A DNA stretch of 64,000 nt from Mosigvirus mar005p1. Numbering within the stretch: position 1 is the stretch's first letter; the number at the start of each line of letters is the position of its first letter. The position numbers and the translations under genes were made by a program. The notes under the pieces are model-generated. The model did no database searches. It was not told the origin of the DNA and saw nothing but the letters and a program-made list of their open reading frames with translations. The stretch lies in sequence record OZ035759.1; one strand, given 5' to 3'. Positions 4,145-22,504 of the stretch are shown in pieces.

Positions 4145-4615
4145 TTAATCATGTTTCCACACCCCATCGGTATTTGACCAAAGTCGCTGGTTATCTGATC
4201 CTCGCCACAGCTTTTTAGTCGGAAGATTTTTCTCATACTTCCCATCAATAATAACATCAACATATTTAAGCATTTCTAGTTGTTTAATATCTTCAAACTT
4301 ATATCCTGTCCACAACCAAATGCTTTTATTTGGATAAAGATTTTTTACTGTTTGAACAATGCAATGAATAACATCTCGGTTATCAGGATAGAGAGGGTCA
4401 CCTCCGGTTATAGTCAATCCTTCTATATAATCATTATTCAAACATTCAATTAATTGTTCTAGTGTCTCTCTAGTGAATGGAACACCATTTCTAGCATTCC
4501 ATGTTGATTTATTATAACACCCTTCGCATTTATGCAAACAACCCGTAACGAAAAGAACGACCCTGCATCCGGGGCCATTCACAAAATCGCAAGGATAAAA
4601 TCTATCATAATTCAT
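4145..4615 (-). CDS. nrdG: anaerobic ribonucleotide reductase activating protein (radical SAM)
   Basis: CLHKCEGC radical-SAM cysteine motif; 4-nt overlap with nrdD stop; position matches T4. Confidence 0.9.
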   Translation of the reverse strand: MNYDRFYPCDFVNGPGCRVVLFVTGCLHKCEGCYNKSTWNARNGVPFTRETLEQLIECLNNDYIEGLTITGGDPLYPDNRDVIHCIVQTVKNLYPNKSIWLWTGYKFEDIKQLEMLKYVDVIIDGKYEKNLPTKKLWRGSDNQRLWSNTDGVWKHD

Positions 4616-6429
4616 TGGTGTTTAACCCTATGCATGATTTCTTTATTTTTACCGAGATTAAATCCGCGTTCGTTCGGATTTCCCAAATAACCGCATGTTC
4701 TTCTTATGGTGTTCATCTTTTTAGGATCAGTTTCTCCGCAAACTGAACAAACAAATCCGTTTTCAGTAGGAGTCATTTCATGGGTACTTCCGCATGTAAA
4801 ACATTTATCTACTGGCATATTAACACCAAAATAATCTAAATGTTGTGCAGCATAATCCCATACAGCCTCAAGGCCCTTTAAGTTATTTTTCATATCAGGA
4901 AGTTCAACATAAGAAATGTGACCACCTGTCGCAATGAAATGATATGGCGCTTCACGAGAAATCTTTTCAAACGGAGTAATATTTTCTTCTACTGAAACAT
5001 GGAAACTGTTAGTGTACCAGCCTTTATCGGTAACATCCTTTACATTTCCGTATTTTTCTGTATCGAGTTTACAGAAGCGATAACAAAGGTTTTCAGCAGG
5101 AGTAGAATATAAACTAAAAGCAAATCCGGTTCTTTCAGTCCACTGTTTAAGATGAGCATTCATTTTAGTTAAAATTTCTTGTCCAATATCACGACCGACA
5201 AGAATATTCAATTCGTGAATACCAATGTATCCCAAAGACACTGAACTTCTACCATTTTTAAATAACTCAATTATGTCATCATCAGGTTTAAGACGAACCC
5301 CGAATGCACCTTCTTGGTAAAGAATAGGAGCAACAGTAGCTTTAACTCCTTTTAAGGAACTAATTCTACACATCAAGGCTTCAAAACACAGATCCATTCG
5401 TTCATTAAATAGCTCAACAAATTTCTGTTCATTGAACTGTGTTCCAATATAAGAATCTAATGCGATGCGAGGAAGATTCAGTGTTACAACGCCAAGATTA
5501 TTACGTCCATCAAGAATTTCATTACCAGTCGAATCTTTCCATACGCTCAAGAAACTACGGCAGCCCATTGGAGAAACTGGAACTGAAGAACCGGTAATAG
5601 CTTTATTATTCTTAACCGAAATAATGTCAGGATACATTCTTTTGCTTGCACATTCTAACGCAAGTTGTTTAATATCATAGTTCGGATCGTCTTTATAAAG
5701 ATTAACACCTTCTTCAACGAACATAACAAGCTTAGGGAAAATAGGAGTTATTCCATCACGACCAAGACCTTTAATGCGGTTTTTAAGAATTGCCTTCTGA
5801 ATCATTCGTTCAGTCCAATCGGTTCCCGTACCAAATGTAATTGTTACAAAAGGAGTTTGTCCGTTTGAACTAAAGAGAGTATTTACTTCATATTCATAAG
5901 CTTGGAATGCGTCATAGACATCTTTTTCTGTTTTAGATTGAGCATAATTCAGAATGTCTGGTATTTGCCATTTTTCTGCATCTTCAACATGTTTAGCGTA
6001 TGTGCGTTTAACATAAGGAGAAAGAACTTTATCTACATTAGCAAAAGTCGTTCCGCCGTATTGATGGGAAGCAACCTGTGCAGTAATTTGTGCCATAATT
6101 GCAGTAGCAACACCGATTGATTTAGGAGTTTCAATCTGTGCATTACCAAGCTTAAATCCATTCTCAAGCATCCCCTTTAAATCTACTAAACAGCAATTAG
6201 TAAAAGGAAGAGCAGGGGAATAATCAATATCGTGCACGTGAATAATTCCGCTTTCATGCGCTTTCATAATAAAAGACGGGACCATATTTTTGGCAATGTG
6301 TTTAGACACAATACCAGCCATAAGGTCCCGTTGAGTTGGAAAAACACGAGAATCTTTATTAGCATTCTCGTTTAAAAGGTCTTTATTAGTTTTATGAATT
6401 AATCCTTCAATTTCTTTTTCAATTGTCAT
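4612..6429 (-). CDS. nrdD: anaerobic ribonucleoside-triphosphate reductase
   Basis: 605 aa; glycyl-radical C-terminus (RTCGYLG) and Zn-Cys cluster (CFTCG..CSVCG); uninterrupted ORF. Confidence 0.95.
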   Translation of the reverse strand: MTIEKEIEGLIHKTNKDLLNENANKDSRVFPTQRDLMAGIVSKHIAKNMVPSFIMKAHESGIIHVHDIDYSPALPFTNCCLVDLKGMLENGFKLGNAQIETPKSIGVATAIMAQITAQVASHQYGGTTFANVDKVLSPYVKRTYAKHVEDAEKWQIPDILNYAQSKTEKDVYDAFQAYEYEVNTLFSSNGQTPFVTITFGTGTDWTERMIQKAILKNRIKGLGRDGITPIFPKLVMFVEEGVNLYKDDPNYDIKQLALECASKRMYPDIISVKNNKAITGSSVPVSPMGCRSFLSVWKDSTGNEILDGRNNLGVVTLNLPRIALDSYIGTQFNEQKFVELFNERMDLCFEALMCRISSLKGVKATVAPILYQEGAFGVRLKPDDDIIELFKNGRSSVSLGYIGIHELNILVGRDIGQEILTKMNAHLKQWTERTGFAFSLYSTPAENLCYRFCKLDTEKYGNVKDVTDKGWYTNSFHVSVEENITPFEKISREAPYHFIATGGHISYVELPDMKNNLKGLEAVWDYAAQHLDYFGVNMPVDKCFTCGSTHEMTPTENGFVCSVCGETDPKKMNTIRRTCGYLGNPNERGFNLGKNKEIMHRVKHQ

Positions 6430-20763: not shown

Positions 20764-21008
20764 TAGTATTTTTCCTCTGGTTGAAATACCGCACGACAAG
20801 CCCACATACTAGCTTCCTTTAGGCGTTCTTTAGCACAGTTCAATTGGGACAAAGCTGTCAAAGCTTCAGGAGTATTCGCAGACAACGCTTCTTCCGCCAA
20901 GGCATCGAAAATAAGCCCTAATCGAACTTCTGCATCTTTAATAGCGTTCACTTTACCGATTTTATCATCGGTATGCGGCTTGTAGCCTTTGATGTCTTCA
21001 ATCGACAT
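20763..21008 (-). CDS. hypothetical helical protein (82 aa)
   Basis: ATG at 21006-21008 ([10 protein letters not shown]); longer track ORF overlaps upstream gene. Confidence 0.5.
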
Positions 21009-21222
21009 AAGGAATTTCCTCATCGGTGGCAAGGTCATATTCGACCAATTGGATAGGCTCATTAATACCATATCCACGTACAGTGATATCAGTTGTCGGA
21101 TAGTTTCCAGTAATATCACCCATTCTAAATGCTTCAGTGAATGATTGCTCTCCAGAGCAACTAAACCAGGCGGCAAAACATTTTAAAACATCTTCAGACC
21201 CTTCTATAATCAATTTAGCCAT
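20998..21222 (-). CDS. hypothetical acidic protein (74 aa)
   Basis: ORF with ATG. Confidence 0.5.
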   Translation of the reverse strand: MAKLIIEGSEDVLKCFAAWFSCSGEQSFTEAFRMGDITGNYPTTDITVRGYGINEPIQLVEYDLATDEEIPYVD

Positions 21223-21584
21223 TATAGACTCTCAGTAAAGGTACGAGCGATAACGTCGCGCTGCTGTTCCGGAGTCAGAGAGTTAAAGCGAACTGCATAA
21301 CCGGATACACGGATGGTCAGCTGCGGATATTTTTCCGGATGCTTAACTGCATCTTCTAGAGTTTCACGACGCAGAACGTTAACGTTCAGGTGTTGACCAC
21401 CTTCAATTTTAACTTTAGGTTGACGTTCAATTTCAATTTCACGGGCATGCAAACCGTAGAAAATTTCCGGGTCTACAATAGCGTCTTCTTTAAAAGTCTT
21501 AGAGACAATAATCCGGGCTTGAGTACCGTCTTCAAAATAAATAGTGCCTTTATGTGCACCTTCAAGAATTTGATATGCTTTCAT
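21222..21584 (-). CDS. autonomous glycyl-radical cofactor (GrcA/YfiD-like)
   Basis: C-terminal [59 protein letters not shown] carries the RVSGYAV glycyl-radical motif; matches recalled E. coli GrcA. Confidence 0.85.
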
Positions 21585-21590
21585 ATAACC

Positions 21591-21899
21591 TCAATTAGAA
21601 AATAAATTTATCCAAGTTTTTTCTTTAATCAAAAATGGGTCGGAATTAAACGCCATTAAACTTTGAGTGATTAATCCCTTAAATGGCCCATCAATAAATT
21701 CCATTTTGAAATGCGGAATACTAGTCATCAACCGTGCATTAGGAGCAGTACAAAGAACCTGCTGCCCTGCGAAAGGACCTTTAGTCAAACGGTATCGTTT
21801 AGGTTTAAAATGGTAAATCTCGTAATTTTCTACAAGGGCCCTTTTATTGCATACTAGGCTGTTATAACAATATTCAAAAACTTCAATAGTGGTCATCAT
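21591..21899 (-). CDS. hypothetical protein (102 aa)
   Basis: ORF; 4-nt overlap with upstream gene. Confidence 0.5.
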   Translation of the reverse strand: MMTTIEVFEYCYNSLVCNKRALVENYEIYHFKPKRYRLTKGPFAGQQVLCTAPNARLMTSIPHFKMEFIDGPFKGLITQSLMAFNSDPFLIKEKTWINLFSN

Positions 21900-22504
21900 T
21901 GCATTCCAATCACAAAAAATTGAGGACGAGCATTACCGCCGATGCAATATTTGCTTTTGCAACAGTGTTGGACTGTTTTAATATGGATGTCGTAAATCTT
22001 ATCCATATCAGGAGCTTTAATAGGCTCGTCAATTATATACAGAATACGAGAAAGCGTTAATCCACGGAATTTAGAACCTTCATTGCCAATAAAACTACGG
22101 ACAGAATCAGTAAATAAACGGAATCGAATATCGTCGCTAGAATAACGAGAAAATTCTTTTTCAATGTTGCCAGCAGAAATTTTAGCATAAGCTGAAGTAT
22201 TAGAAAGAACAATAACTGTTCCACCATCATACAGCCAATTAGCAGCAAAGTTAGTCACAGCAATTGATTTACCTGATTGTCTGCCACCGTCTAAACGAAG
22301 TGTACAGTACTGCTTGAGTACGTCTTCAAATGGTGGGACATAACCGTTCTTACAAATTTCTTCTACTCTAGCATCAGAATGGTGTGTAAAAGCATTCATC
22401 AGGGATAGATAAGGACCAGTTAAAAATGTTCTCATTTTATTCTCTCTAAATTTGGGCCATTCCATGGCGCATGTTAGGTCCTTCGACTCGCTATGTAAAC
22501 CCAT
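21896..22504 (-). CDS. P-loop NTPase-like protein (about 180-200 aa)
   Basis: Walker A-like GGRQSGKS and Walker B-like ILYIIDEP; start ambiguous (ATG candidates near 22435 and 22465). Confidence 0.55.
   Translation of the reverse strand: MGLHSESKDLTCAMEWPKFRENKMRTFLTGPYLSLMNAFTHHSDARVEEICKNGYVPPFEDVLKQYCTLRLDGGRQSGKSIAVTNFAANWLYDGGTVIVLSNTSAYAKISAGNIEKEFSRYSSDDIRFRLFTDSVRSFIGNEGSKFRGLTLSRILYIIDEPIKAPDMDKIYDIHIKTVQHCCKSKYCIGGNARPQFFVIGMQ

Follow-up and report, generated by a model that had tools for sequence, protein, structure and literature searches.

A probable Escherichia coli grcA conversion tract within the vs.6 (Y06I) orthologue of a Mosigvirus

The DNA stretch analyzed here—64,000 nucleotides (nt) of Mosigvirus mar005p1, record OZ035759.1, hereafter the window—encodes on its minus strand a small GrcA/YfiD-like glycyl-radical protein, whose gene can be assigned by sequence comparison as the Mosigvirus orthologue of vs.6 of phage T4, the gene for Y06I. 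This gene and its function are already known as a T4-type auxiliary metabolic gene, and the gene itself adds nothing new. The useful part, of moderate interest, lies at the DNA level: an old phage-type 5′ half switches within one codon to a 171-nt tract that is almost identical to grcA of Escherichia coli, and this tract appears to be E. coli DNA acquired recently by host-to-phage recombination. The mosaic pattern is seen directly in the alignments, and recombination is the mechanism that we infer from it. The explanation as a whole—a vs.6/Y06I cofactor encoded by a mosaic gene that bears a recent conversion tract from E. coli grcA—is one that we hold with considerable confidence. The gene and its parts are positioned as follows.

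21222..21584, minus strand: phage GrcA-like coding sequence (vs.6/Y06I orthologue), an ATG-to-TAA open reading frame (ORF) of 120 amino acids
21405..21584, minus strand: codons 1–60, the phage-type N-terminal region (5′ half), with 16 of 60 residues as in E. coli GrcA
21234..21404, minus strand: putative host-derived tract, codons E61–T117, 171 nt, with 170 of 171 bases as in E. coli grcA
21291..21311, minus strand: RVSGYAV glycyl-radical motif, residues 92–98, placed by alignment to GrcA and to PflB 697–759
21222..21233, minus strand: last three codons and stop (GAG AGT CTA TAA), from the codon table against E. coli and phages

On the protein level, residues 61–120 equal residues 68–127 of E. 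coli GrcA at all 60 positions, RVSGYAV included, and residues 1–60 share only the 16 identities listed above. An earlier note on this DNA had stated both the near-identity of the C-terminal 60 or so residues and the divergence of the N-terminal half. Both statements hold, and the alignment to E. coli GrcA and T4 Y06I, which was proposed there as a check, proved decisive. The likeness extends to the DNA and is hence stronger than stated there. The match covers nt 181–351 of the gene (codons 61–117)—nearly the whole structured glycyl-radical domain—and a single base, 21357, departs from it, the L76 codon being CTA instead of CTG. The switch from phage type to E. coli type takes place within one codon: K59-I60 are encoded by AAA ATT, where E. 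coli has CGC GTT, and the E. coli sequence runs from E61 on. The last three codons are of the phage type again, GAG AGT CTA against GAA AGC CTG in E. coli; the same ending is found in phages leB and RCIP0002, and these codons can be taken to mark the 3′ end of the host tract. Within this tract, the T4 reference NC_000866 (locus positions 5558–5920) carries CAT (His) at residue 72, and another T4 record, MT984581, matches E. coli grcA at 171 of 171 bases; the two T4 records differ either by strain or by an old sequencing error.

The specificity of this match was assessed against a bacterial panel of 80 grcA loci, one genome per species. The tract is 99.4% identical to E. coli, 98.2% to Escherichia sp., and at most 91.8% to every other genus. 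Thirteen non-Escherichia loci that encode the same 57 amino acids reach only 83.6–92.4% DNA identity to E. coli. A 25-kb query from the window, compared by megablast with 5426 complete E. coli genomes, gave the grcA tract as its only match, and it hit as many places in these genomes as the tract alone. Candidate donors other than grcA, namely pflB and tdcE, were ruled out at 76–83% DNA identity. Klebsiella pneumoniae is absent from the panel and was supplied from PLSDB chromosomes mislabelled as plasmids: the PLSDB “plasmids” CP125156.1 and LR134122.1 are chromosomal sequence of K. pneumoniae (5.37 Mb) and K. aerogenes, respectively. In the latter assembly, K. aerogenes NCTC10006, grcA bears a one-base frameshift in an A-run.

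The base composition changes along the gene as well. The GC content is 0.48 in the 3′ 183 nt (codons 61–120 and stop) against 0.36 in the 5′ 180 nt, the GC content at third codon positions (GC3) is 0.39 against 0.23, and a 120-nt GC window peaks at 0.51. Host-like choices are seen in some codon families, with CTG for 4 of 5 Leu—against a background of 8%—and CCG for 3 of 3 Pro. The codon-usage and GC comparison of the 3′ half that had been suggested thus returned a modest signal, which is not decisive on its own as a sign of foreign origin. More telling is that the tract reproduces the non-preferred codons of E. coli too (CAA, AAG, GTA, and TAT).

The synonymous divergence (dS), calculated by the Nei–Gojobori method over the 171-nt tract, amounts to 0.023 between the window and E. 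coli. For comparison, E. coli differs from Citrobacter by 0.38, from Klebsiella by 0.60, and from Salmonella by 1.13. Cronobacter phage leB has the identical 60-residue C-terminus, and yet its DNA is only 84–85% identical to E. coli grcA there, with a dS of 1.27; for phage CC31, dS to E. coli is 1.18. Protein constraint is hence insufficient to explain the identity of the tract, since dS is 0.023 here and about 1.2 in these control phages, and convergent codon optimization is insufficient because non-preferred codons were copied too. The features by which a conversion tract is recognized are thus present: sharp junctions, 170 of 171 bases against at most 91.8% in other genera, and a dS of 0.023 against 0.38–1.27. 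Three lines of evidence argue for the direction from host to phage: relative to other enterobacteria, the E. coli tract shows the order of divergence that taxonomy predicts, its composition equals that of the rest of the E. coli gene, and the phage 5′ half is AT-rich phage sequence.

The age of the patch can be appreciated by a comparison with T4, which is a Tequatrovirus. The T4 protein Vs.6/Y06I (NP_049730) is equally 120 residues long and 94% identical to that of the window, its gene lies at the same position between vs.7 and vs.5, and it bears the same host-identical tract. The genes flanking vs.6 are only about 65–75% identical between the two phages, the 5′ half of vs.6 about 90%, and the tract 98–100%; the proteins differ by seven amino acid changes and the genes also in their last three codons. 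Against Tequatroviruses, dS drops from 0.39–0.41 over the 5′ half to 0.023 within the tract (Fisher P=4e-4), and the 5′ half shows a ratio of nonsynonymous to synonymous divergence (dN/dS) of about 0.1. Four Mosigvirus and four Tequatrovirus genomes are separated by 12 fixed differences in the 5′ half, by none within the tract, and by 2 over the terminal 12 nt. By these counts and the dS contrast, the patch is much younger than the split between Mosigvirus and Tequatrovirus. In the database as a whole, the E. coli tract is matched by 376 phage records at 99% identity or more and by a further 266 at 95–99%; slur03 and one T4 record are among those with 171 of 171 matches. E. coli itself is polymorphic for CGT/CGC in the tract (GrcA R80); at this codon, RB69 shares CGC with K-12, and CGT is seen in seven other phages. 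That this polymorphism is mirrored among phages is a suggestive hint of repeated events, albeit at a single site.

For T-even phages of Klebsiella (Jiaodavirus), the donor is a different one. Among the matches listed, their tracts are 94.6–97.6% identical to K. pneumoniae grcA, against 86–89% to E. coli, and E. coli phages in turn are 80–90% identical to the K. pneumoniae tract. The K. pneumoniae tract is matched by 106 Klebsiella-phage records at 95–99% and by 28 records at 90–95%. In phage KEN39, codons 61–103 equal K. pneumoniae exactly, and the 5′ part has a GC3 of 0.25 as against 0.57 for the 183 nt made up of codons 61–120 and the stop. The residues LLDAVEH of Jiaodavirus are also those of Klebsiella; E. 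coli has LEDAVKH, the two differing positions being E77 and K81 in the window protein. By these comparisons, the Klebsiella patch is clearly an independent event with a different host donor. Nevertheless, its 5′ junction falls at the codon where the E. coli phages have theirs, so the junction appears to be set by where phage–host homology begins and not by common descent. Within Jiaodavirus, genomes with 98–99% identical 5′ halves differ at 4–6% of tract positions; among four genomes, the tract has 15 segregating sites and the 5′ half has 4 (P=0.008), and the patch ends near codon 103 in KEN39 and near codon 116 in Nispero. This heterogeneity points to several conversion events within Jiaodavirus.

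Phage homologues outside the patched lineages show no recent host patch, with GC3 as low as 0.08. CC31 (Karamvirus), leB (Pseudotevenvirus), RCIP0002, DT57C, VSe12, SE_PL, and the Aeromonas phage 44RR2.8t share the two-part architecture and the conserved C-terminus with the window, but their C-terminal DNA—like that of RB49-like phages—is 74–85% identical to any grcA of the panel and uses phage-like codons. The 5′ half is well conserved among the sampled T4-like phages, and the N-terminus is far more divergent in T5-like and jumbo phages. A search with the Salmonella grcA tract gave no phage match above 90%, and one with the Enterobacter tract gave a single record, at 90–95%. The T4-like Klebsiella phage RCIP0002 has the LLDAVEH residues, at most 84% DNA identity to the panel, and a dS above 3 to K. 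pneumoniae; its tract could be an old, ameliorated conversion or the ancestral state. As LLDAVEH is also found in the E. coli phage vB_Eco_SAP, the matching of residues to the host is not strict. In the T5-like phages DT57C and VSe12, the GrcA homologue (locus positions 301–669) adjoins transfer RNA genes, and its DNA is about 74% identical to the panel.

The membership of the protein in the GrcA/YfiD family (IPR011140), which the earlier note had read from the sequence, is borne out by profile and structure matches. As in this family, the protein stands alone with 120 residues, without the catalytic barrel of pyruvate formate-lyase (PFL), and ends in a PflB-homologous Gly_radical domain with RVSGYAV. 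Pfam Gly_radical (PF01228) covers residues 60–101 (E=2.4e-18), the best NCBIfam match is TIGR04365 “autonomous glycyl radical cofactor GrcA” (E=1.4e-46, alignment starting at residue 18), the PDB entry 6OWR of E. coli YfiD/GrcA is matched at E=1.8e-42, and residues 58–120 align to PflB 697–759 (E=5e-26). The N-terminal region can be aligned to YfiD from residue 18–21 on. G95 (codon 21300–21302) is the counterpart of G102 in GrcA and of G734 in PflB, the position of the radical glycine in PFL being taken from PMC8683613. Many phage records annotate vs.6 homologues as autonomous glycyl radical cofactor. Of the T4 ORFs whose function was then unknown, vs.6 is among the few retained by all five T4-like genomes compared in 2006 (PMC1524935).

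The biochemistry of YfiD and Y06I goes back to the 2001 work of Knappe and co-workers. According to its summary in PMC8683613 (Wagner et al. 2001), YfiD and T4 Y06I take up a glycyl radical from the PFL activase, and the radical-bearing proteins reactivate PFL that has been cleaved by O2 at G734. The same source describes residues 1–60 of YfiD as disordered and yet aiding binding and activation, and residues 61–127 as having the fold of PFL 693–759 (PMC8683613). The statement in the earlier note that Y06I can repair PFL agrees with this account, and the 94% protein identity and the shared gene context tie the window gene to Y06I. The same note saw the protein as complementing the phage's own glycyl-radical enzyme, the class III ribonucleotide reductase (RNR), and its radical S-adenosylmethionine (SAM) activase, both encoded 15–17 kb from vs.6.

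4612..6429, minus strand: nrdD, class III RNR (Pfam NRDD 1.4e-171, Gly_radical 1.6e-25)
4145..4615, minus strand: nrdG, radical-SAM activase of NrdD (Pfam Fer4_12 5.6e-49, Radical_SAM 5.7e-08)

The distance is as claimed, but the complementation is loose, as GrcA is activated by the host PFL activase and not by NrdG. A connection might run through formate, which is the reductant of class III RNRs (PMC4493059). In the Salmonella jumbo phage SE_PL (MT001829.1), a grcA homologue (locus positions 295–657, GC3 0.08) is found between nrdD and nrdG, an arrangement that hints at a physical link of the PFL spare part to the formate-dependent RNR.

Several points weigh against the reading given here or limit parts of it. 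The codon fit of the tract lies at the 22nd percentile of 57-codon windows of the phage, and the rise in GC is modest. The NCBIfam score of 157.9 bits stays below the GrcA equivalog cut-off of 170, which is attributable to the divergent N-terminal half. The PFL-repair function would be carried over from T4 Y06I to its 94%-identical orthologue, and the link to NrdD through PFL-made formate is likewise conjectural. A donor for the tracts of RaO2 and KEN25 (93.6% identical to K. pneumoniae) was not found among the compared grcA genes. Tequatroviruses isolated on Yersinia, Salmonella, and Citrobacter retain the E. coli-type tract; over times as short as those spent on an isolation host, conversion is thus infrequent. 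Finally, two independent E. coli events, one in Tequatrovirus and one in Mosigvirus, and one event followed by phage-to-phage spread are inseparable by these data.

Among the alternatives, the earlier note had itself named strong constraint next to recent acquisition. Purifying selection, or convergence on host-optimal codons, in an ancient gene without any recent exchange would be in line with the high conservation of the C-terminal 60 residues in all phage and bacterial homologues, including those of T5-like, jumbo, and Aeromonas phages. However, protein-level selection leaves synonymous sites free to change—as leB and the 13 non-Escherichia loci illustrate—and does not lead to a copy of non-preferred E. 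coli codons, or of Klebsiella's own choices in Klebsiella phages; constraint only keeps the protein, recent DNA exchange explains the synonymous identity, and constraint alone is thus very improbable. Acquisition, on the other side, concerns an internal 171-nt patch and not the whole gene. A recent capture of all of grcA with subsequent very fast divergence of the N-terminal half could draw on the still detectable GrcA homology of this half (from residue 18 in NCBIfam, 16 of 60 identities), but it is hardly credible: the phage-type 5′ half is common to T-evens of Klebsiella, Cronobacter, and Enterobacter (only a short similar start is left in the homologues of T5-like and jumbo phages), the dN/dS of about 0.1 at a dS of about 0.4 between genera marks the half as under purifying selection, and the jump within one codon is the signature of a recombination junction. 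That host reads were mis-assembled into a phage genome has nothing beyond the host identity itself in its favor, and the chance of it is practically negligible, given the same in-frame mosaic in more than 640 independently sequenced phage genomes—T4 and RB69 included—and the presence of lineage-specific private substitutions. A different function is very improbable, too. The protein might be a spare glycyl-radical domain for the phage NrdD, or a decoy titrating host PflA, instead of repairing PflB; nrdD and nrdG are present in the same genome, the SE_PL homologue sits between these two genes, and an early paper proposed a role in nucleotide metabolism (PMC1524935). Yet the domain is identical to that of the host's own PFL spare part and matches PflB 697–759, NrdD is not among its PDB matches, and T4 Y06I, by the account cited above, restores cleaved PFL after activation by the PFL activating enzyme.

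The closest contest is about how often conversion took place. Whether T-evens repeatedly resample the grcA domain of their current host by homologous recombination, with the identical tract favoring further conversion, is evenly balanced in our view. Alternatively, there might have been one host-to-phage event per host species, followed by spread from phage to phage, which we consider possible but rather unlikely. In Mosigvirus and Tequatrovirus, the 5′ boundaries of the tract coincide and the 3′ boundaries nearly do, the nested changes in Mosigvirus—CTA at L76 in the window, AV115, and NicPhage; CAT and CCA in AV115 and NicPhage—fit vertical descent, and the E. coli tract persists in Tequatroviruses isolated on other genera. 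However, the shared 5′ boundary is no proof, as it is also common to the independent Klebsiella event; Jiaodavirus genomes with almost identical 5′ halves vary in tract content and 3′ boundary; and RB69 differs from the other phages by its K-12-type CGC, a single site which could be homoplasy.

Under the preferred reading of a vs.6 cofactor with a converted domain, the following course of events is proposed. The C-terminal 60 residues would fold like PflB ~693–759, and host PflA would place a radical on G95 of RVSGYAV. The small protein would then dock on PflB that has been cleaved by oxygen at G734, such that the conversion of pyruvate and coenzyme A (CoA) to acetyl-CoA and formate could resume, with the N-terminal half as the presumable counterpart of the disordered YfiD region aiding binding and activation. 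After the shut-off of host gene expression, the phage might in this way sustain fermentative acetyl-CoA, adenosine triphosphate, and formate in the micro-oxic gut, and the formate might also supply the reductant for its own NrdD. On the DNA level, an old phage grcA homologue would have stayed about 80–85% identical in DNA to host grcA over the constrained 3′ half, and homologous recombination with host DNA during infection would have swapped codons 61–117—a gene conversion that would have come after the divergence of Mosigvirus and Tequatrovirus. The resulting identical tract of 171 bp would favor further conversion even more. The last three codons would resist replacement or revert afterwards, maybe because they overlap a GAGAG Shine–Dalgarno-like element and the TAATG start of vs.5.

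Compared to the bacterial protein (6OWR), the window gene likewise encodes a small stand-alone glycyl-radical protein with an identical C-terminal 60 residues; its weakly homologous N-terminal half is seven residues shorter and bears phage-type AT-rich codons, and the gene lies among phage ORFs, and not in the chromosomal ung–grcA context. The glycyl-radical domain of PflB (PDB 1H16, 2PFL) is similar, too, and is the region of PFL that the spare part replaces; its DNA is about 79–83% identical. The closest parallel for the DNA pattern is psbA of marine cyanophages, for which intragenic recombination between host and phage has been described (Sullivan et al. 2006, PMC1484495). Both are auxiliary metabolic genes of lytic T4-like phages that swap segments with a host copy. 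In contrast to psbA, vs.6 concerns another gene, host, and ecology, with a single short tract and a 5′ junction fixed at the start of homology, and the tract is near-identical to the allele of the current host species, within T-evens that contain hydroxymethylcytosine.

In the searchable literature, which excludes the 2001 paper on Y06I and the T4 genome review of 2003, no paper on this DNA-level host identity was found, and prior notice is possible; the pattern of host gene conversion is probably under-reported. The finding added here would be the host-species-specific conversion of a glycyl-radical domain in two T-even lineages. It offers a clean and quantifiable case in which a strictly lytic phage with modified DNA has taken up a short chromosomal patch that differs by host species, and a tractable system for measuring host-to-phage recombination. 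The sequence of the tract may mark the host on which a T-even phage naturally grows, and the lineages together form a natural experiment that asks how close the match between a spare part and the host enzyme under repair has to be. If repeated resampling is true, the spare part evolves in concert with the host gene, and the tract is a DNA tag of the natural host—E. coli-type in Tequatrovirus and Mosigvirus, K. pneumoniae-type in Jiaodavirus. Conversion may then even be selected, since the part must fit both host PflB and PflA.

The neighborhood of vs.6 is a run of same-strand, tightly packed or overlapping phage ORFs, in which two further elements directly border the gene.

21589..21592, minus strand: putative GAGG ribosome-binding site (Shine–Dalgarno), 4 nt before the ATG, read from the sequence
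20998..21222, minus strand: vs.5-like ORF of 74 amino acids, downstream, whose ATG overlaps the vs.6 stop (TAATG)

The GAGG element shares bases with the TGA that ends the vs.7-like ORF upstream (21591..21899). A Pfam scan of the vs.5-like ORF gave no match, and a promoter and terminator scan around vs.6 performed no better than on shuffled sequence. The order vs.7–vs.6–vs.5 is the same in T4, RB69, and AV115, within the early region tk–vs–regB–denV. As a Mosigvirus, the phage is an RB69-like T-even. The DNA of vs.6 is 99.2% identical to the gene of Mosigvirus AV115, which is annotated there as “autonomous glycyl radical cofactor”, and the 15 kb around it are 96–97% identical to T-evens of E. 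coli and Shigella, e.g., JN02 and JK36. A second T4-like island is found at 22171–22440 in the vs.8-like ORF (21896..22504, minus strand), with 92–98% identity to T4 and flanks at 40–80%; this island is not similar to E. coli DNA, and the ORF has no Pfam match.

Two database records deserve mention for their labels. NZ_JBQPOM010000029.1, named “Vagococcus sp. WN89Y”, bears an Enterobacteriaceae-type grcA with 91% protein identity to E. coli and is probably a contamination or mislabelling. PV654520.1, “Pseudomonas phage vB_PSGBLB0006”, is labelled as infecting P. aeruginosa; its vs.6 is 93% identical to that of the window, and the phage has the appearance of an E. coli-type T-even.

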